Below, one piece after another: positions 37,601 to 50,900 of a stretch of 64,000 nucleotides of DNA; position 1 is the first letter of the stretch, and every line of letters starts with the position of its first letter. The position numbers and the translations under genes are program-made. Origin of the DNA: Daphnia carinata (Eukaryota); the NCBI RefSeq assembly GCF_022539665.2, contig NC_081334.1:2666001-2730000 (forward strand), given 5' to 3'. The notes beneath the pieces were generated by a model. That model did not search any database. It saw nothing but the letters and a program-made list of their open reading frames with translations, and was not told where the DNA came from.

Positions 37601-38620
37601 ATGAAGATGAACCGAGTGGAAACGAATTGCAGGAGGGAAGTAGTGAATGAAAGGCAAGACGGACGGCTGATGGATCAAGCGGATGGATCATTGTCGCCAT
37701 CGAGCCTTTTACTGCGTTCAACCGCCGCCGACAATGACGGATGGCGAAGGCGCACAGACCGACGCATGGCCAGGGCTCGAACGCGAAGAGCTCGAGCCGA
37801 CAAGCAGCAGACGAAGCGCTTACGCTCTGCTCCGGATGTTCATCCAAGTTCCGGCCGCTGTTGGATGCCCGTAGCCGGCGGACAAGATGAGTCGCTCTGT
37901 TCTCCATTACCCGCGGCGTCCGCGTATCAGGAAGCGCAGACATGGCAGCAACACCACCACCAACAGCAGCGACGGTATCGATCAAAACGTCCGTTCCCAC
38001 CCGCCCGCCTTCAGCTCTTCTGTGTGTGTGTGTGTGTCGCTTTTCTTTTCCTTCTTTTTTTCAATGATACTGGAGAAAGGGGAAAAAAAAAAAAAGGCTC
38101 GGTCGAAGATGTACAGCGTCATTCTTTGGAACCCGATTCCCGGATTTTTCACTTGACAGTTGATAAAGCGCACACGCAGGCCCGTTTCGGTCAGGCCATT
38201 TTTCCGCCTTTTTTTTTTTTTTAATCCCGAAGAGTTTCACGATTTTAAAAACTCGGCTTTACCTCCCCCGGGTTCTTTATAGCGTCCATCTTTTTTTTTT
38301 TTTTTTTAAGCGAAATGTCGTTTTCTTCGATTGAGTCATCGGTGATTGCGTTTGGTCCTCTTCTTCTGTGTTTACGCTCCGAAAGGATTGACTAGCAACA
38401 TGCAATGGTTGCGATACGAAGACCACACTCCATGCATGTACTTCCTTTTCTTTAAAAAAAAGAAAATGGGGGGGGGGGAGGTTTAGAATGATGGAAATAA
38501 AAAGGAAGTAAAATATTAATAAAGCAGAAAAGGGAGTAGACGGGCCTTATTTTTGTTGGCAATGGACTGTCTGAAAGAACGTGAAATGATTATGTTTGTA
38601 GGCAATGCAAGGGCGTAGGT

Positions 38621-38655
<35 letters not shown>

Positions 38656-39663
38656 CACGGGGAAGGGATAGAAGAAGAGAAAGAAAAGTCTCAAGATCAA
38701 AAAGGTCGGATGATAAAAGGTGAAAATGTGTTCCTTCCAAAGGGGCGGGGAGAATAAAGAAAGGAAAGCAAATGGCTTCATTTCTAGTCCGACTCACGTC
38801 CGCCATGTTGCGCAATCTGCCCTGTTAAAAAGAGCAACAGCCATTTGCTGGCCTCTCTGTTGTTTTCTATTTCCGTATTTTTTTTTTTAATTATTATTAT
38901 TATTATTTTTGTTCTTCTTCTTCTTTTTATATTTTTCTTTTCTTTTTTTGTGATTTCCTCGGAATGTGACACGCCCCTGAAGCGGACGAGGTCAATCGAT
39001 GGAGGGACTTTGACTTTGACGTTGTTGCCATTTGTTCACCGTTGTCACGTTTTTTTTTTCTTCTCTCTTTTGCGTGTGTCGTGTTGTTGTCGCCCGTCGA
39101 AATGTTGTCGTTACAGCCTGAACAAGCCGATCGATGCTACCATGGATAATAGCGCCACAGTGACACCCCCTCACGAAGGAGCCAATCCCGGAATCAACGG
39201 CGGCCAACCGGATCAACCCAAGCCGTCCATACGACGTGATTTAGGCAAAAACATCATTTGTTTTTTTGTGTTTTTTTTTTCCCCTTTTTCTTTTCGTTGT
39301 CCGTGATTGAGAATTTTTGCGTTTTCGTTCCTTTTCCAAACGGCAACAACAACACAACAAAAATATTGTCGTATGCAAAAACAGGTTCGAGATCGCGGAG
39401 CGCAGAGGCGATGGGCACGCCGTCGTCGGACGGCGGTAGCCACGGCAAAAGCCGGCGGATCTTGCCGTCGTTGAGACGCATATCAACAACACCATTGAAG
39501 CCGAGACGTCGGTCTTCGTCCGAATCGTCCGAATCGTCGTGTCCGTCGGCGCCGACGGCTCCCAAACAGCCGGCCAGGCCGAGCCCGTTGAGGAGCGCGG
39601 CCGTGGCCGCAGCGCGCAAAACGCGCCGATTGTTCGGCGCTAAATCCAATGACATTTCACCTG
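37601..39663 (+). CDS. ATP8B: Putative N-terminal extension exons of ATP8B (about 257 aa, low-complexity and S/R/P-rich)
   Basis: Exons 37601-37974 (phase 2), 39117-39235 (phase 2->1) and 39385-39663 (phase 1->1) join in frame through GT-AG junctions to the conserved [10 protein letters not shown] exon at 41024. No domain homology recognised; alternative starts are possible. Confidence 0.6.
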
Positions 39664-40100
39664 GTATTTTTTTGTTTTGTTTTACGCACGGATTGCCGTT
39701 GCTTGTCCGTCTTCCTGTCCGTCTCATTCGCCCGTCTAAAAACCGCATGTTTTATTTTGAGACGTTCCATGTGCGCACGTGTAGTGGAACGTCGTCGTCA
39801 TTTTCTTTTTCAATGTTGGTACGCACGCAAAAATTGCACAAGCTGTTGCAAAAAAAAAAGTAAAAGACGTTGCGTGTGTGAGTGTGTCTGCAAACGCCCC
39901 CCCCCATTTTACTTGTTGATGGCTTTCAAATTCGATCCCCCCCCCCCCCCCCTTCGTATTTTTTTGTTTGGGGGAGGTTGTTGGACGATACGTTTCTTCT
40001 TAATTAGTTTCCGGCTGCTTGAAAGGCGAGCAAAAGTCAACGTGAGTGTATTAAAGACGCGGGCACTATAGGAGAAAGAACGTAACGTGATTCGTTTGGA

Positions 40101-40137
<37 letters not shown>

Positions 40138-41023
40138 GCACAGCTGTTACGTCTCTCGTTCTCGCCCTTGGATGGCCAAAACCAATCGATGAGAAGAGAT
40201 TCGGCTTTTCTCTCATCAGGCGCTCTCTCTCTATCCATTTTTGCTTTCTCTTATTTGTAGCTATTCAATCTTTAGTAGCGTAATGATCTTTTTTCCTTTT
40301 ACGGATCAATGATATCATCATCCTCCTTTCCCTTTCCAGAGGTAAAAAAAAAAAAAAAGAGAAACATATTTTTGTTTGTAATGATGTCATCCATCAATTT
40401 TTTTTTTTTTGCCCGGAGTTCGTGATTCCCATCGTTCTCGGCCACGGCCGCTCTTTCCCGGTTGTTAGCAAAAAAAAAAAAAAAAAGGTCCTGAAAATCT
40501 TGCGTCATAGTCTCTAAGGAATTTTTATGATTTATTTATTTATATTATTTTCCGGATCTTTTTTTTTTTTCTTTCTATGTTTTGTATTCTCTTCTTCTCC
40601 TATTATCAAAAGCATCCGGGTGCTGTGTGTGTGTGTGTGCGTGTAGTATTGATCCGCCTCCGATTGTAATAACGCCGGCATGGAAGGGGCTGGCTTTTAA
40701 AGTATTACGTGAGGGATTGTTGTAGAAAGGGGAAAGTGGGGAAATCGTCGTGTTTGTACATTCCATTTTTATTTAAAAACAATACCCACGAAAGAAAAAA
40801 AAAAAGGAAAAGATGAATCGAACAATATTTGCATGGCACTAAAAGAGCAACAATTGGAAAAATGGTGAGATGTTTGTGGAATGTTTGTTGATGTTGTAGT
40901 TCTTGTTGCTTTCCATTGTTTCGGTTAGGTTGATTGTAGTTGTTGTTAGTGTGACTTGATTATCTCCTTTGATCATTCAACAAAACTAACATTCGATTTG
41001 CATGATTTTCATAATTGATATAG

Positions 41024-44000
41024 AAAACGAAAGACGGATACGGGCTAACGACACGGCTTTCAATTCGCAGTTCAACTATTCAGTAAGTGATCTTCATTTG
41101 TTTTGTTTTGTTTTGTTTTGTTTTGTTTTTCGTCTCAAAATTCAATTGTTTTGCCGGGTGGGTTCGTTATCTTTTTAAATGAGGAAGCGCATCGTTTGAA
41201 AAAAGGAAATTACAAAACGAAAATGTTCACATCCGAACTCGTGACGTTGACACGCGTCACGTGTGTTCCAGTTTGCTGACATTTTAAATGGAATGAAATT
41301 AATTCTTTTTTTTCGTCCTCGCTTTGAAAAAAAAAAAAAAAGGATAATTACATCCAGACGTCCAAGTACACGCTGGTGTCGTTTGTGCCAGTCAACCTGA
41401 TCGAGCAGTTCCAGCGGCTGGCCAATTTCTATTTCCTGTGCCTTTTGGTGCTCCAGTTCATCCCGTTCATCTCGTCGCTGACGCCAGTCACCACTGCCGT
41501 GCCTCTCATCGGTGTCCTGCTCCTAACGGCCATCAAAGATGCCTACGATGATTTCGTGAGTTTTAACTTTTTTCCCAATTTCGAACTGGCATATCATGTG
41601 AATATGCCTAATTGTTTTGTTTATGATTTGGAACACGTTCAGCAAAGACATCGGAGCGACTCGCAAGTGAATAATCGAAAGTCGCACGTCTTGCTCAATG
41701 GCAAGTCGGTGGAAGAGCGTTGGCACAAAGTGCAGGTGGGCGACATCATTCGCATGGAAAACGATCAGTTCATCGCGGCTGATCTTCTTCTTTTGACCAC
41801 GTCCGAGCCCAACGGCCTCTGTTATATTGAAACGGCCGAGCTGGACGGGTATGATTTCATTTTTCCCGCCCTTTTTTTTTTTTATTTATTTATTTATTTT
41901 AATTTAAGTACTTTGCTAAACATGAAAAATTGATGATGTTAGGGAGACCAATTTGAAATGCCGCCAGTGCCTGATGGAGACGGCCGAAATGGGCCAGGAC
42001 GAGGCTAGGATCGGCGGTTTCGACGGAGAGATCGTCTGCGAGCCGCCCAATAATCACTTGAACAAGTTTGAGGGCCGGTTGACGTGGAACGGCAAGCAGT
42101 ACTCGCTGGACAATGACAAGATCCTGCTCCGCGGATGCGTTCTGCGCAACACGCAGTGGTGCTACGGCGTCGTCGTCTTCGCCGGACGCGACACGAAGCT
42201 GATGCAGAATTCGGGCAAGACGAAATTCAAACGGACCTCTATTGATCGTCTGCTCAACTTTATCATCCTCGGGGTACGATTTCATTTCCGTCATTGCTCA
42301 TTTGCCTTTTGACATTCAAAATCTAAGCCAACGTTTTTGTTTTTGTTTTTGTTTTCTTAGATTGTTTTCTTTCTGCTGTCGATGTGCCTGTTCTGCACGA
42401 TCGCCTGCGGCGTCTGGGAGACGGTGACGGGCCAGCACTTTCGCTCCTACTTGCCGTGGGATCCGCTGATTCCGGCCGAGCCCAAAGCTGGCTCCACCGT
42501 CATTGCCTTGCTCATCTTCTTCTCGTACGCCATCGTTCTCAACACAGTGGTGCCCATCTCGCTCTACGTCAGCGTCGAAGTCATCCGGCTGGCCCAGTCT
42601 TTCCTCATCAACTGGGACCAGCAAATGTTCTACGAAAAGACGCAAACACCCGCCAAGGCGCGCACGACGACACTCAACGAGGAGCTCGGCCAAATCGAGT
42701 ACATTTTCTCCGACAAGACGGGCACGCTGACGCAAAACATCATGTCATTCAACAAGTGCTCCATTGGCGGATCTTGCTACGGCGACGTCTTTGACGCATC
42801 CAACGGCGAAATCATTGAGCCTAACGAGGTACACCGTCCTCCGTTAATCGTTTTAGTTATTCGAACATCATTTTTTTAACGTGACGTGCTTTCAGAATAC
42901 CAAAACAGTGGACTTCTCTTTTAATCCGCTTCACGAACAAACGTTCAAGTTTTACGATCAGACACTTGTCGATTCGAATCGTGAACAAGATCCCACCTGC
43001 CATGAATTCTTCCGACTTCTGGCACTCTGTCACACCGTCATGCCCGACGAGAAAAATGGTATTTCATTTCTTTCTTTCTTTTCGTTGTGTGTTTCATTCT
43101 GATTTCATTTGTTTGTTTTTTTCATTTTAAAGGAAAACTGGAATACCAAGCCCAATCGCCGGACGAAGGAGCTTTGGTATCAGCAGCTCGCAATTTTGGT
43201 TTCGTCTTTAAAGCACGCACACCAGATTCTGTCACCATCGAGGTTATCATCATTTCTTAAAGAATGATTCAATCAAATGTGTGTTGTTAATGAAAAAAAA
43301 AAAACATTTTATGACAGGTGATGGGAAAGACGGAAGTCTACGAATTGCTGTGCATTTTGGATTTCAACAACGTCCGTAAACGAATGTCGGTCATCCTTCG
43401 CGGTCCCAATGGCAAAATCCGCCTCTACTGTAAAGGAGCCGACTCGATCGTCTACGACCATCTGCAGTCGGGAAATGACGACATTAAGAACAAAACACAA
43501 GAACATTTAAATGTAAAAAAACAGTTGCTGAGCGATCTTGTTTTTGTTTTCTCTGAAATTACTTTTTCCTTTTATGTTTCTCCAGAAATTTGCTGGTGAA
43601 GGTTTAAGAACGTTATGTTTGGCAATCCGTGACGTGGACGAAGCTTATTTTGAAGACTGGAAGGAACGACATCACGAAGCCTCGGTTTCGATGAAGTCGC
43701 GAGAAGAACGTCTGGACAAACTGTACGAAGAAATCGAACAGAATCTGACACTGTTGGGTGCAACGGCCATTGAAGATAAACTTCAAGATGGGGTCAGTAG
43801 AATTTATTTCAGTTTCCAGAAAAAATGTCTTTTTAAATTTGAATTTTATTTTGTTTAAAGGTGCCACAAACTATTGCTAACCTTGCGATTGCTGGAATTA
43901 AAATTTGGGTGTTGACTGGAGATAAACAAGGTGATTGATTTACACAGTCAGATATTGGGGTGGTATAAATAGAGATTACTTGTGAATCTAGAAACTGCCA

Positions 44001-47000
44001 TCAACATTGGATATTCTTGCCAGCTGTTGACCGACGAGATGGTCGATATTTTTATAGTCGACGGCCAGAACGTCGAAGATGTCGAGCTGCAATTAATCAA
44101 ATGTCGAGAATCTCTGCGTGGATATGCCCGCAGTCAAGTCCAAACTGCTCTCAGTGGAATCAGGTACACACACACCTTCGTCCATTTTGCATCTGGATAG
44201 TTCTGCTCATCAATGATTTGGTAAATCATTTAGTGACCGTGGCTATTCGTCCAGCATCGGTGGTGAAATGGAGGACATGGCGTGCGGACCAGAATTGACG
44301 GGAATCGACGAGGACAACAACACGGGTTACGCCTTAGTCATCAACGGCCATTCGTTGGTCTACGCCCTGCAGACCAAGTTGGAAAAACTGTTTCTCGATG
44401 TCGGTACACAATGTAAGGTCATTTGTTGCTGCTTTTCTGCCAAATCCATTTGGAAATGATGACGACACGCTGGTTTTCAATTGTTTTCAGGCAAAGCAGT
44501 GATTTGCTGCAGAGTGACACCACTTCAGAAAGCCATGGTGGTCGATTTGGTGAAAAAATACAAACAAGCCGTCACGCTATCTATCGGTGACGGAGCCAAC
44601 GACGTATCAATGATCAAAACAGCCCACATTGGCGTTGGCATCAGCGGTCAGGAAGGCATGCAGGTAATATTATTCTTCGTTCGAATTTAGTGACGGTCTG
44701 ATTTTTGCAATTGCAATTGTGACTGTCTAGGCCGTCTTGGCGTCAGATTACAGCATTGCCCAATTTCGGTATCTCGAACGTTTGCTGCTCGTCCACGGGC
44801 GTTGGTCCTACCTTCGCATGGCCAAGTTTTTACGCTACTTCTTCTACAAGAACTTTGCCTTCACCCTCTGCCATTTTTGGTTCGCCTTCTTTTGCGGATT
44901 CTCCGCCCAGGTATGTGCATTTGTTTTTTCTTTTGTTTCTATCCTTAAAGAAGTTCAGTTTTTTTTTCTTTTGCGGGGAGGGGGGAGCTCTCGTAAATAG
45001 AAGTCGGGGGTGTGCCAATGGTATCAAACGTTCCAGGGCAACGGTTCCGGAATCTTATTCACATAGAATCTGATCTTCTGAATTCTTTTGTTTGTTTTTG
45101 TTCTTATTTTTGCTTGGGGAAAAGTGTACTTGTCGTTTCGCACGAATTCTCGCAAACCAAAACTAATATGAAAAAAAAACAAAAACAGCACGGCTAAACT
45201 GCACAATTGGAATGGAACCCACTAACCGAATTGGTTTTAAATTTTCACTGAAACAAAAAAAAAACGAAAACAAAAACGTATAAAAACAAATCGATTTCTA
45301 CGCAACAACAACAACAAACAAAAATGTTGTCGATTGAAACGGGGGGACGACGCAGACGGTGTACGAGCCGTTCTTTATCATTTGCTACAACGTGGTCTAC
45401 ACGTCGTTGCCCGTCTTGGCGCTGGGCATCTTCGAACAGGACGTCTGCGATACGCTCTCTACTCGCTACCCGAGACTCTACTCGCCCGGCCTGGGACACA
45501 ATTTCTTCAATCCGCGAAGCTTTGCCTCGGCCGCCTTGCACGGTGTCGCCACATCCGTTTTAGTTTTCTTTGTACCTGTAGGTACGTACGTTTTTCATTT
45601 GCATGCGAAAGCAAAAACACGAAAACACACAAAAAACAAAATCGGAAGAGACCCGGTTTTCATGGTTTTGCGCACGTCAAAAAGCACTTTGACCTCCAAA
45701 ACTGCCTCCTCGAATTTCCCTTCCTCCTCGCCCATTTTGCTTTCGATTCCGTCGGCGGATGTGTCGGATGAAAATTCCCGTTTCAAAAGATAAAAAAAAA
45801 AATGCGGATGGCATGTCAGTTATTAACGGATTGATAGGTGGCAGTAGTAGATAAACCAACCGTCATTGAGTTAGGAAAATGAATTTATTTTTTAAATCTA
45901 TTTTCAAGCATGATTCTTTTTTATTTATTATTTTCGCTTTCGCCTCTTTTTTTTTTCCTGTTCAATATATTATTATTTTTGTCTATCATTCGTTGGGGCT
46001 TCCGGTTGGTTGTTGATCTCCGAGTCGTTAACAGAAGCCAGGGAGCTTATTGTGTCTCGTCTTCCCGATCTACTAGTATTAAATGCTAAACAAATGGCCA
46101 CGCCCTTCTTCGTGTTTACGATGCTCTCGGGGGACCGTTGTAACGTTTAGATTTTGCTTATTTTTCCTTCTGCTTTTGAGGCCTTGCCCGTCTAATAAAA
46201 ATGTTTTATTTATTGATTCCTGTGCGGGCAAAACAAAACAAAACAAAATAAAAAACAAACAAAACAAATGGCTGGACGTGGATAGACTGTGTTTGATCCA
46301 ATGTTCATCTCGGTGTACAACCTGTTCTACACGTCTCTGCCCGTCCTGGCGTTGGGCATCTTCGACCAAGACGTCAATGACGTCAACAGCCTCAAGTACC
46401 CCAAGCTCTTCACACCCGGCCATCTCAACCTGCTGTTCAACAAGGCGGAATTCTTCAAGAGCGCCATGCACGGATGCATCACGTCCTGCGTCCTCTTCTT
46501 CATTCCCTACGGTGCGTCCTCGCTTGTCCGTTTCCCCGTCTTCCGAACTCCATCCAACGTAACAACACCACAAATCCCCTCAGCGAGATCCCGCTGTCCT
46601 CAAACATTGAAACCGAGCAAGGGACACTTCCCTTTTTTTTTATCCTGTCCAGCAGAAATCTCTTGTACATTGAGCTCTTCCAATCACCTCGTACCCTCTC
46701 TTATCCATTGATCCTCCTTCTCTCTTTCTCTCTTTATTCGAGCACATAAAACAATATCATTTTCTTTCATTTTAATTTTTCAAAAACATTTGATGACGAT
46801 ATTTTTCTATTGTTCTGCGATGTGGATGTGCGCGGTGGAAATGCAGGTGCCTACTTCGACGGTGCCTCGCACCAAGGGCACACAACTTCGGATCATCAGC
46901 TGATTGGCAGCGTCGTGGCCACCATCCTGGTCGTCGTGGTGACGGTGCAAATCGCGCTGGATACGGCCTACTGGACAGTGTTCAATCACATCACCATCTG

Positions 47001-47997
47001 GGGCTCGCTCGTCTGGTACTTTGCCCTGCAATATTTTTACAACTTCGTCATCGGCGGATCCTATGTCGGCTCGCTCACCAAGGTACCTCACCATCATTTA
47101 TTTATTTATTTTTTTTTTTTTATCCGTTTCGTGACATTTTCATTTGAAAAACAAAAAACATTTTGTCAGGCGATGGGAGAGGCGACGTTTTGGTTCACGC
47201 TGGTCTTGTCCATCGTCATCGTCATGATTCCCGTCGTTGCGTGGAGATTCTACTTTTTCGACGTTCATCCAACGCTGGCCGACCGCGTCCGTTTCAAGCA
47301 GAGACAGCCTCGCATCCGGTGCGTTCAACATTTATGTTTTTCCATGTTTTAAGTTTCGATTTTTCATTTTGTTTTTGTTTGTTGTACGCAAACATTTTAG
47401 GGCGCACAAATCTCAAGACTTTTTGCGGACGCCTTCGGCTCGTCGCAGTCGACGATCGCTGCGATCCGGCTACGCCTTCGCCCACCAGGAAGGTTTCGGC
47501 AAACTCATCACATCAGGCAAGATTATGCGCAAGACGGGCTTGAATTTCGGGACGAAAGCAAGCAGCAACAATGCGGCAAACAACAACAGTGGAAGCAGCC
47601 ACAGCGTGTCGACAGGTGGCGGCCTGGCCTCACTGGCCGATCACCCTGACGGTAAGTCGCACATGAACTCATCATTTCGTTATCGAATTTGCTTGCTGGC
47701 CAAGTTTATTTTTATTTTTTTATATATATATTTTGAAACAAATAATTGAAAGCGATCGTGTGCGTAGGTCCAGTTTCGGGCATTTTTTACCATCCGATGG
47801 GAGAGAACGATAGAAGTATGCAGCCCAGTACGCGCCAGTCTCACAATGGCAGTAGCGTCCAGCCGCGAGCTTCGTCCGTCGCTTACGCGCGCACGGCCAA
47901 CAATAGTAGCCGGCCACGATTGCAGGATCCCTACGCCATCACCGTAGATCTGGAGTCTGGCGGAGAGCCTGCCTTACCCAATACAATGTCGACGTGA
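41024..47997 (+). CDS. ATP8B: Phospholipid-transporting P4-ATPase (flippase), ATP8B class
   Basis: Exons 41024-41082, 41343-41555, 41643-41848, 41943-42273, 42361-42828, 42896-43058, 43133-43242, 43318-43512, 43586-43792, 43861-43930, 43992-44163, 44234-44412, 44491-44663, 44731-44910, [45356-45581 OR 46286-46511], 46847-47082, 47170-47318, 47401-47651 and 47768-47997. With the three upstream exons the total is 4590 nt and in frame. Motifs: DGET, PISLYVS (P4-specific TM4), phosphorylation site DKTGT (Asp at 42712), QSPDE, TGDKQETA, GDGAND, and C-terminal [13 protein letters not shown]. Confidence 0.97.
45356..45581 (+). CDS. ATP8B: ATP8B mutually exclusive exon A (TM6-loop-TM7, divergent copy)
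   Basis: cgcag|ACG GTG TAC ... GTA G|gtacgt, 226 nt, phase 0->1, no stops. Translation: [76 protein letters not shown]. Confidence 0.9.
46286..46511 (+). CDS. ATP8B: ATP8B mutually exclusive exon B (TM6-loop-TM7, canonical-like copy)
   Basis: gatag|ACT GTG TTT ... TAC G|gtgcgt, 226 nt, phase 0->1. Translation: [76 protein letters not shown]. Confidence 0.93.
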
Positions 47998-50900
47998 TGG
48001 GCGTCCAAACAATTCGGACCAAAAATGTTTCTATTTTGTCTGATAACCAAAATTTAAAGTTTTATAAATAAGGGAAGGGACGGGGGGGGGGGGGGGAAAG
48101 AAAAACAAAAAGTGCAGTTGGGGCTTTTCCGTGAGTGGCGCGTGTACGTTTTGAAAGTCAACTACGGTGGAAAACGAAATGCCGCAATTTTCTTTCAATT
48201 TTTGCTTATGTTGCTGAAATTGACTTTTGTCCAACCCCGAAACGAAACAAAAAGAAAAGAAAAAAAAAATTCCTCTTCATCCCAAAAGGTTGTGCCGTTG
48301 CCGCTACGCAACATTTTCTTGTACAGGTGTAACAGATCCGATTAGATCCAAAGATAAAGACACGAAAAGAAAAAAAAACGTGAAAACATAAAAAAACATA
48401 AATGTCGTGTGAAATACGCCATGTTTGTGTTTGGTTTTGTTTTTAGTTTTTTTTTTTTTTTTTTTCCCCTTTCAATCTACCAATTCTTTTTTGTTTTGTA
48501 TGATGCGTTTACTTCTATCTCGTCAAATGTGTTTCATGTCGTATTTTCCGAGCGGCTTTGGTTGAAATTGAAAAAAAAACAAAACAAACACGATTGTACC
48601 TTATACGTCCGCATTTGCGAGTTGGTGACCTTTCGAACCTTTCCCTGCAAAACAAAAGAGATGGAGATTTAAAACAAAAAAAAAAAAAAAAAACAAAAAA
48701 AAAAAAAAAAAAAAAAAAATGAAAATTCCACCTTAACCAAAAAAAATGATAATAATAATAGCGAAATTAATGAATTGAAAAATAACCTTATGTAAACGAA
48801 GATCTTATCCCCCCCGCTGCCCCCCGTTTGCTATCCACTTCTTTATTTATTTATTTCTTTTATTTTTATTTTTCTAAATGAAAATGTGTGGTACGTAAGA
48901 AGATATATTTATTCAAGTAATATCACTAAGATATTTTTTTTTTCACTCTTCTTTTGATAACATCATTTTAAAAAAAAAACCAATAATGAATTTGTTTTTG
49001 TTTTTGTTGTAAACGTCATCATTCCTTTCTGAACAAATGAAAATGTTTTTGTGTAAGTGAAACGGAGAGTTATGTGCGTAACGCTTCGTTACTATGTACG
49101 TGCAACTTGTGCTGCCCAATTTTTAAATTGATTTCTTTCTTTCGGTTAAACCCTAAATCCTAACATTCTCGCAACCACCACTGTCCGAGCCGTTTTATGG
49201 TGCGCCTTTCACCTACGAATTGCGTTTTCATTTTTGGTTTTTCTTATCGTTTCCAATCTTCAAAACATTTTTTTTTTTGTGTTTTGAGAAAAACAGAAAT
49301 ATTTGATTTAATTAAGGATATATATATATAAACAGTACATATAAATATATGTTTCAAATTGAGAGATATCTTGGACGCGATGGAGACGATATCGATTTAG
49401 ACTTGTTTCAACAAAGACCACTTACGTCATGCCTCCTCAGTTTATGCTTTTGAACTTTCATTTTTTTTTCTTCCTTGTTTAGCTTATTAATAACTCATAG
49501 TTGAAACTTATCTGAATGAACGTGTCGTGGAAAAAGAGAAACAATTCGTTTTTGTTTCCTATTTTTCATTTTTGTTTTTTTTTTAGTTCAGTTTTGTGTT
49601 TATTTTAAGATTTTCCGCCCTCCCCCTCCTCTTTTTTTTTTAATTAAATGAAATTGAAAAACAACTCTGAATGACGGAGCTCGTTCGCTATACGTGAATG
49701 GCATATTTTTATAAACATTTATTATTATTTTTTTTTTTCGTTTGTTTTTGTTTGCATTTTTCCTATCAGCGTGCTGTCGTATGCCTTTTGAATTTCCATT
49801 TTCCGTTCAATTATTATTTTTTTAATTTCTAGTCTCTTTCGCCTTTCCATGGTTGCCGAACAACAATACGGCCTCCTACTGATTCAAATTCTTTAATTCC
49901 CCCTTTCCTACGCAGCGAGGAAATATTATTTTTTAAACTTCATTTAAAGAATAGAAAACCCATGAAATGTAATTTAAAATCATTTCGTCCCCTCAGCCCT
50001 CCCAAGAAAAATGATCCCCCCCCATTCTCTTGTTTTCCTGTTCCTCGAAACCTTCCCTTTCGTGTCAACTATCTAACATAAGATTTCACTTCCTTTTCCA
50101 AAACCGATATGATAAGTCATCGGACAAACCGATCGGGGTGAACCGCGATGACTCAAGATCTGTATAACTATACCAAGTGCCTGCCATGCCTGTTCGTTCA
50201 TCACAACCCCCTTCCCCCGCTCCCTTCCTTCCCACAAAGTATTTGTTTTTGATTTTGATTTCATCATCTTTTCAGTAAGAAAAAGAAAACAAAAAGAAAA
50301 AATCGAATTCATGATGATTTAAGACGAAAGAACCGCACCGATACATAACCACGTTCTTATAAATCTGGCCCCATTTTTATTTATTTATTTTCTTTTTTTT
50401 TTTCTTTCCCCAATTTATGATTTCGCCTCCAGACCTATATTATACAGTTGTTTTGTATACTGTATTGCCCTGATATAGTATATAAATATAGAAATATATA
50501 TATGCATACAATAACCCAGAACGAAACCGTCGATATCCTTCACCCAGTTATGATGACGTTGCATGTTTGTGGACGTGAATCGATACGTCTACGCCTACGC
50601 CTACGCCTGGCAAAAGAAACGTGACAAAATTCATGTGAACTTTCACAATTTCCTGGAACGTGGGATTACCCTCTTGTGGTAGGCCTTCAATTAGCCGATT
50701 TTCACGCGTGACAACGGCGAGCCCAGAGAGTCAATCGAAAGCCCACCCGCCCCCCCCCCCCTTTTTTTCGTGACGTTGTCGAGAACTTGGTCGACCACAA
50801 CGATCCCGCAGATTGAGCACGCGCCCCTTCAAAAACAGGGAATATTTCAAAGAGAAAAATCAAGCATAAACAAGAGATGAATTGAATCACTAAAAATGTA

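Follow-up and report, generated by a model that had tools for sequence, protein, structure and literature searches.

The locus examined here raises the question of whether one flippase gene of Daphnia carinata can supply two versions of the same pair of membrane helices, and of what the second, unannotated version would be for. The window, a 64,000-nt stretch of contig NC_081334.1, contains on the + strand an ATP8B-type P4-ATPase gene (39411..47999), for which a 20-exon coding model gives 1,356 aa with either of two neighbouring exons, here called A (45356..45581, +) and B (46286..46511, +). They are preceded by a constant exon (44731..44910, +) that encodes the end of the P domain and TM5 and ends with FSAQ in phase 0, and are followed by a constant exon (46847..47082, +) that starts in phase 1 and encodes the TM7-8 loop onward. 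A first-pass annotation had proposed A and B as mutually exclusive exons, and the positions, the 226-nt length, the flanking AG and GT and the stop-free frames that it gave for the two were all confirmed. The gene carries the PISL and DKTGT motifs and a P4 C-terminal domain, and human ATP8B1 is its nearest solved relative, in agreement with an ATP8B-type assignment. Both exons matched Pfam PhoLip_ATPase_C (PF16212) at positions 60-134, and their segment aligned without gaps to residues 978-1051 of human ATP8B1, a stretch holding N989 and T993 of TM6 and the pocket residue R1032; therefore, the earlier identification of the exons as TM6-TM7 stands. No other duplicated exons of this gene were found in the window by tblastn, and a search of the ESM Atlas returned the known family only. 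It was also noticed that upstream exons at 37649-37975 and 39118-39246 match isoform X1 of D. pulex in its long N-terminus; the gene has alternative N-termini as well.

The model containing only B (1,356 aa) showed no mismatch to the RefSeq protein of D. carinata (XP_057374311.2), and the model containing only A, of the same length, differed from that protein at 35 positions. Inclusion of both exons led to a stop at 1,071 aa, three residues past A and 851 nt ahead of the last junction, and omission of both led to a stop at 1,011 aa, 579 nt ahead of the last junction, which agrees with the earlier statement that both or neither would shift the frame. A and B are identical at 132 of 226 nt (94 differences) and at 40 of 75 whole-codon residues, or 41 of 76 when the split Gly is counted, as the first-pass annotation had done. 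Its further remark, that a 12-residue core is kept in the protein while the codons differ, was overstated as regards the codons, since the same codon is used at 23 of the 40 shared residues and a different one at 17, and in the core 4 of 12 codons differ.

In other Daphnia-like DNA, orthologs of exon A were 83-97% identical to it. A search with A yielded four clusters of open frames (83-88% identical), each bounded like exon A, one of which includes KAK4015510.1, a D. magna gene model of one exon whose number adjoins that of the main gene; exon A has been missed in Daphnia annotations or, as in D. magna, treated as a separate gene. A metagenome scan for the A pattern, which selected for PFFI, confirmed 7 of 369 pattern matches. 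Two contigs were informative about gene order: L001 carries the upstream exon, then A, then the start of B, and L002 carries the upstream exon followed by A. The stop-free frame of 226 nt was exact in every A copy read at the DNA level. Nei-Gojobori counts in three pairwise comparisons gave pN/pS values for A of 0.25 (window and L002, p = 6e-6), 0.19 (L001 and L002, p = 1e-7) and 0.17 (window and L001, p = 0.035), with 0.13-0.16 in the TM7 part (positions 53-75) of the two pairs involving L002, and the differences among A copies lie mostly at third codon positions. By these substitution patterns, exon A is under purifying selection at the protein level in Daphnia relatives, as the first reading of the sequence had supposed.

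Exon A evolves faster than B, with 63 of 75 residues identical to D. magna against 70 of 75. Between the window and L001, synonymous change was seen at 4 of 56 sites in A versus 97 of 216 in five constant exons (p = 2e-8), as expected for a regulated exon; between the window and L002 the gap was small (0.35 in A versus 0.49 in the constant exons), so that the low rate was not repeated there. The A exons of the window and of L001 (3001-3226) differ at 6 nt though the constant exons are far apart and D. magna A (P0246) has only the 63 residues in common with the window, a closeness that may stem from unevenly distributed constraint or from several A lineages. Over its first 45 nt (46286-46330), B is identical to L001:4114-4158, which suggests RNA-level constraint at the B acceptor; this stretch keeps the codons that cause the early stop on joining of A to B.

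Gene models revealed A-like copies also in decapods, a stomatopod and isopods. In models of Cherax, Procambarus (two), Penaeus japonicus and Oratosquilla, the upstream exon is joined to an A-like segment distinct from the B of the same species, and in those of Armadillidium vulgare and A. nasatum the A-like segment stands directly before B in one gene; altogether, the upstream exon is joined to A in seven models from six malacostracan species. Crayfish and mantis shrimp are identical at 59 of 75 residues in A and 64 of 75 in B. Crayfish A matches Daphnia B at 47/75 residues and Daphnia A at only 42/75, and exon B is closest to the segment of insects, chelicerates and myriapods. Five residues (N12, T16, P19, G63 and P74) are kept in all six A and all five B segments checked. 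PFFI was considered as a marker of A but proved unsuitable, being present also in myriapod and snail segments and having been a selection criterion of the scan.

A profile search of 1.84 billion representatives detected further open frames of the same length and two more tree groups, which are probably of A type, an assignment sorted from the tree. Contigs L003 and L004 hold 226-nt AG-GT exons of the A kind without neighbouring exons in the contig. In L003, a TM7-like stretch with a donor of the same phase (about 1490-1560) lies some 320 nt upstream of the 226-nt exon and is possibly, with some uncertainty, a remnant or a third copy. Divergent A-like frames of 75 residues without the Pro at the TM7 end, which is present in the A of Daphnia and malacostracans, were also noticed (P0320, P0325, P0336, P0376, P0383 and relatives). 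In a tree of 28 of the 69 available rows, all nine A rows fell on one side of a branch with support 66/81, and neither a branchiopod A+B clade nor a malacostracan A+B clade was rejected (p-AU 0.25 and 0.27, respectively). One old A/B duplication is the history given by the best tree, and separate duplications stay compatible with these alignments.

Other membrane exons of ATP8B appear to have been duplicated as well. The ATP8B of another animal contains tandem 84-nt exons encoding TM6 only, with AG-GT borders and phase 0-0 (L005:1168-1251 and 1963-2046; L006:722-805 and 1496-1579; L007:2831-2914); in L006 the pair sits after the FSAQ exon, and the second copy resembles the segment of the annelid Helobdella. 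As 84 is a multiple of three, the frame would not enforce a choice between them, and the pair is probably a separate duplication at the same place. In Littorina saxatilis, isoforms X2 and X1 (P0356 and P0357) are of equal length and differ only at residues about 70-101; this block, with 15 residues changed, covers the TM1-2 loop and TM2 and makes a further exchangeable membrane exon, here in the ATP8B of a mollusc. Together with the A/B pair, these two cases suggest that ATP8B has repeatedly duplicated exons for membrane helices.

All 16 Daphnia models longer than 900 aa among those listed use B and none enters A; one of the 16 is an open frame of a Logan assembly, and together they supply the junction from the upstream exon to B that bridges A. 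The counts cover up to 15 members per cluster (15 of 24 for Daphnia, 15 of 27 for Penaeus and 15 of 17 for prawn). Among the 86 listed crustacean models longer than 900 aa, 82 contain only B, three terminate shortly past A and one has both. RefSeq isoforms usually rest on RNA-seq junctions. Of the junctions by which the first-pass annotation proposed to recognise the A form, that from the upstream exon into A was seen in gene models of malacostracans, and that from A to the exon at 46847, bridging B, occurred in none of the seven gene models entering A and in none of the 86 long crustacean models listed. Six proteins that scored for A together with the downstream exon turned out to be distant P4-ATPases, weak on both profiles, and were set aside as not being crustacean A forms. 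On this usage in gene models, B is the default exon and A the minor one.

All five models in which A is complete (P. japonicus X6, O. oratoria X5, P. clarkii X6, an older 156-aa model of P. clarkii, and C. quadricarinatus) end 3-18 residues past it, and these tails lack conservation, even from one D. magna-like allele to another. Two A-entering models end in Gly-Glu and a short tail, which we read as probable intron read-through. Three end with DTV and a stop, which is compatible with out-of-frame splicing of A to B; of 2,000 possible tails, 24 end in a stop and are compatible with it, this one included. Joining of A to B therefore seems to occur in two crayfish species, and in two isopod models a shortened A runs into B. 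The claim that splicing must be mutually exclusive was too strong, as the frame only makes double inclusion unproductive and the crayfish models fit A joined to B. The 156-aa crayfish model, folded without an alignment, reached a pLDDT of 47, too low to be informative.

Comparison of the introns revealed several short conserved motifs. One lies upstream of A (45189..45217, +), was one of the top local matches in all three pairs among the window, L001 and L002, and is a candidate splicing element. Two lie downstream of A (45673..45773, +), of which 45673-45715 is common to the window and L002 and 45743-45773 to the window and L001, and three lie upstream of B (46035..46207, +) and are common to the window and L001, the last having a branch-point-like CTAAT that may serve as the branch point. 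The motifs common to L001 or L002 are candidates for control elements. An RNA stem looping out A was sought in two duplex scans of three sequences (L002 incomplete), and none rose above shuffles: duplexes at least as good as the best came from 15, 84 and 28 of 100 shuffles in one scan and from 52, 43 and 30 of 60 in the other. Pairing of the downstream-A motifs with the upstream-A motif was likewise no better than shuffles. Docking-site/selector pairing, as in Dscam-type exclusion, is unsupported, as its duplexes were not above shuffles, and steric exclusion of A and B appears unlikely with a 704-nt intron and a branch-point-like motif near B.

In the protein, the two exons agree at 22 of 30 positions in TM6, 9 of 22 in the loop and 9 of 23 in TM7. 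The TM6 transport-site residues (equivalents of N989 and T993) are identical in A and B. At position 55, corresponding to ATP8B1 R1032, B has Glu and the A of the window has Ser, and the equivalents of R952 and R1164, located by numbering via a 1251-aa ATP8B1-like protein, are Arg in Daphnia; both these and K957 are encoded by constant exons, R952 and K957 in the upstream one. Glu occupies position 55 in 30 of 31 B-type or single arthropod segments versus 1 of 26 A-type segments, a set that was sorted in part from the tree, so that the latter count is not independent. Named A exons have Ser, Val or Thr there and no basic residue, Armadillidium B has Ala, and six mollusc and annelid segments are non-acidic. 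In Daphnia, TM7 is more hydrophobic in A than in B (1.8-1.9 versus 1.2-1.3), a difference that is small or absent in malacostracans.

These differences can be placed on ATP8B1, as far as the passages available from two structural papers go. Simulations of ATP8B1 name R1032, R1164 and R952 as top contacts of PI(3,4,5)P3, in a pocket formed by TM5, 7, 8 and 10 (PMC10657443), and the TM6-7 loop touches the N-terminal tail of CDC50A (PMC9045818). By analogy, it is possible that B damps and A frees the phosphoinositide pocket, provided that phosphoinositides regulate the crustacean enzyme in the first place. The part of the first-pass annotation's idea that concerns contact with CDC50 fits the divergent loop. 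Its other part, a different lipid preference, is weakly supported: TM6 lines the canonical site, but it is the part most alike in A and B, with identical transport-site residues, and the headgroup groove and cavity of ATP8B1 are described as TM1-4 (PMC10657443).

The reading that we favour, with moderate confidence, is that A defines a minor, mutually exclusive isoform beside the default B and is likely to retune regulation rather than the choice of lipid. The gene contains two intact copies of the TM6-TM7 exon that diverged long ago, and at some stage or in some rare cell type A would probably take the place of B. The selection seen on its amino acids implies that A is part of some protein. 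Duplications of this sort commonly lead to a full-length product, and the retained donor, after exactly 226 nt, and the retained Pro (P74) closing TM7 agree with a protein that continues. The A form is predicted to be a full-length flippase with the same transport site and probably a different regulatory face, as A would lose the Glu that B puts at the main phosphoinositide contact of ATP8B1, beside two Arg from constant exons, and would rewrite the loop that touches the CDC50 N-terminal tail. Exclusivity would be leaky, A+B and unspliced transcripts being formed and then cleared by nonsense-mediated decay, and these messages would be what bulk data show. If the isoform exists, we hold only tentatively, as something that may well prove otherwise, that the swap alters phosphoinositide activation or CDC50 coupling more than headgroup choice. 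A full-length A form would provide a natural swap experiment on the most poorly understood side of P4-ATPase control, in one gene of a tractable animal, with the transport site kept and the TM6-7 loop and phosphoinositide pocket changed. It would single out the position of R1032 as a switch of sensitivity to regulatory lipid.

Four other explanations have to be weighed against this isoform. The absence of A from every listed Daphnia model, together with a T content before its acceptor that is the lowest among the 20 acceptors listed, could indicate a dead duplicate or an assembly artefact, the two outcomes that the first-pass annotation had named as fatal to its proposal. We regard this as very improbable, since A is intact and under selection in independent assemblies, L001 repeats the order of upstream exon, A and start of B, and A differs from B at 94 nt. 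A true mutually exclusive switch acting mainly on lipid substrate preference, a variant of the favoured reading that is weighed separately, would explain why 8 of the first 30 positions differ, including Phe/Met at 6 and Cys/Val at 10 in the exoplasmic half of a helix that lines the canonical site; it is improbable in view of the invariant N989 and T993 equivalents, the placing of the headgroup cavity in TM1-4, and a divergence that is greatest after TM6. It is also quite unlikely that A acts as a poison exon, which on inclusion ahead of B would put the message out of frame and target it for decay, and so tune the amount of the B enzyme with no A protein being made. The premature stop on joint inclusion, the crayfish models that fit it, the strong nucleotide conservation between the window and L001 in A and at the start of B (first 45 nt), and the conserved intron motifs are what such an exon would show, but the protein-level constraint on A (pN/pS 0.17-0.25 with its third-position bias), the 59 of 75 residues common to crayfish and mantis shrimp and the exact stop-free 226 nt in every copy are not.

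Protein-level selection would equally be explained if use of A ends the protein just after TM7, by read-through or by out-of-frame joining to B, and selection acts on the resulting short protein, a seven-helix flippase without TM8-10 and the C-terminal tail. All five complete-A models stop in this way, the DTV tail fits joining to B (24 of 2,000 tails), and the TM7 of Daphnia A is the more hydrophobic one. Against it, the tails are not conserved, the difference in hydrophobicity is small or absent in malacostracans, and the stop on joining A to B falls 851 nt before the last junction; such an early stop is a typical substrate of decay. TM8 and TM10 account for much of the CDC50 interface. Both also belong to the phosphoinositide pocket described for ATP8B1 (PMC10657443). 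We judge this explanation unlikely, and slightly less likely still that an exon ending the flippase after TM7 has been kept since the split of water flea and crab. Were that so, a P4-ATPase of seven helices would retain the whole transport core but lack TM8-10 together with the regulatory-lipid pocket and the C-terminal brake, a form for which we found no precedent, a search for truncated P4-ATPase isoforms having returned no relevant literature match.

A duplicated exon is already on record for the human flippase ATP8A1, where we take it to belong to the A domain. This pair (74 nt; supplements of PMC5740500 and PMC8373072, as far as available) is similar to A and B in concerning a P4-ATPase and a length not divisible by three, and different in belonging to another subfamily, in encoding an N-terminal cytosolic part and not membrane helices, and in its listed vertebrate origin. 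ATP8B is absent from the supplements obtained from PMC5740500 (which lists ATP8A1) and PMC8373072 (which lists ATP8A1 and ATP10B), and term matching found no ATP8B in the supplements of PMC7954323, PMC7318467 and PMC11282837 or in the retrieved text of PMC10379218, a result that is weak for supplements giving genes by identifier. In agreement with the first-pass annotation, the literature searched did not yield any account of a TM6-7 exon duplication in ATP8B; as a mechanism, this type of splicing is already known. The Drosophila gene dATP8B (CG14741) is an insect member of the same family with seven predicted isoforms (PMC3961175), but its retrieved proteins carry a B-type segment and the passages seen of that paper hold no TM6-7 splice choice. 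The closest solved structure is human ATP8B1-CDC50A (PDB 8ox4 and others; PMC10657443 and PMC9045818, in part), in which N989, T993, G1040, R952, K957 and R1164 correspond to residues kept in Daphnia, whereas R1032 is replaced by the Glu of B or the Ser of window A, and no TM6-7 exon pair is listed for the human ATP8B genes. The nearest parallel lies in the mutually exclusive homologous exons treated in the accessible parts of PMC5740500, PMC8373072 and PMC9741552. PMC5740500 requires neighbouring homologous exons of similar length with the same phase and splice sites, as A and B are, and a bridging junction for each exon, of which the gene models listed here provide that on the B side; it accepts joining of the two exons when the frame is shifted, as it is in the crayfish models, and among human clusters it reports lengths not divisible by three in 60%, with joining reads in 22% of those. 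A and B are like these known exons in being paralogous neighbours of equal length and phase, in shifting the frame on joint inclusion, and in comprising one default and one minor exon.
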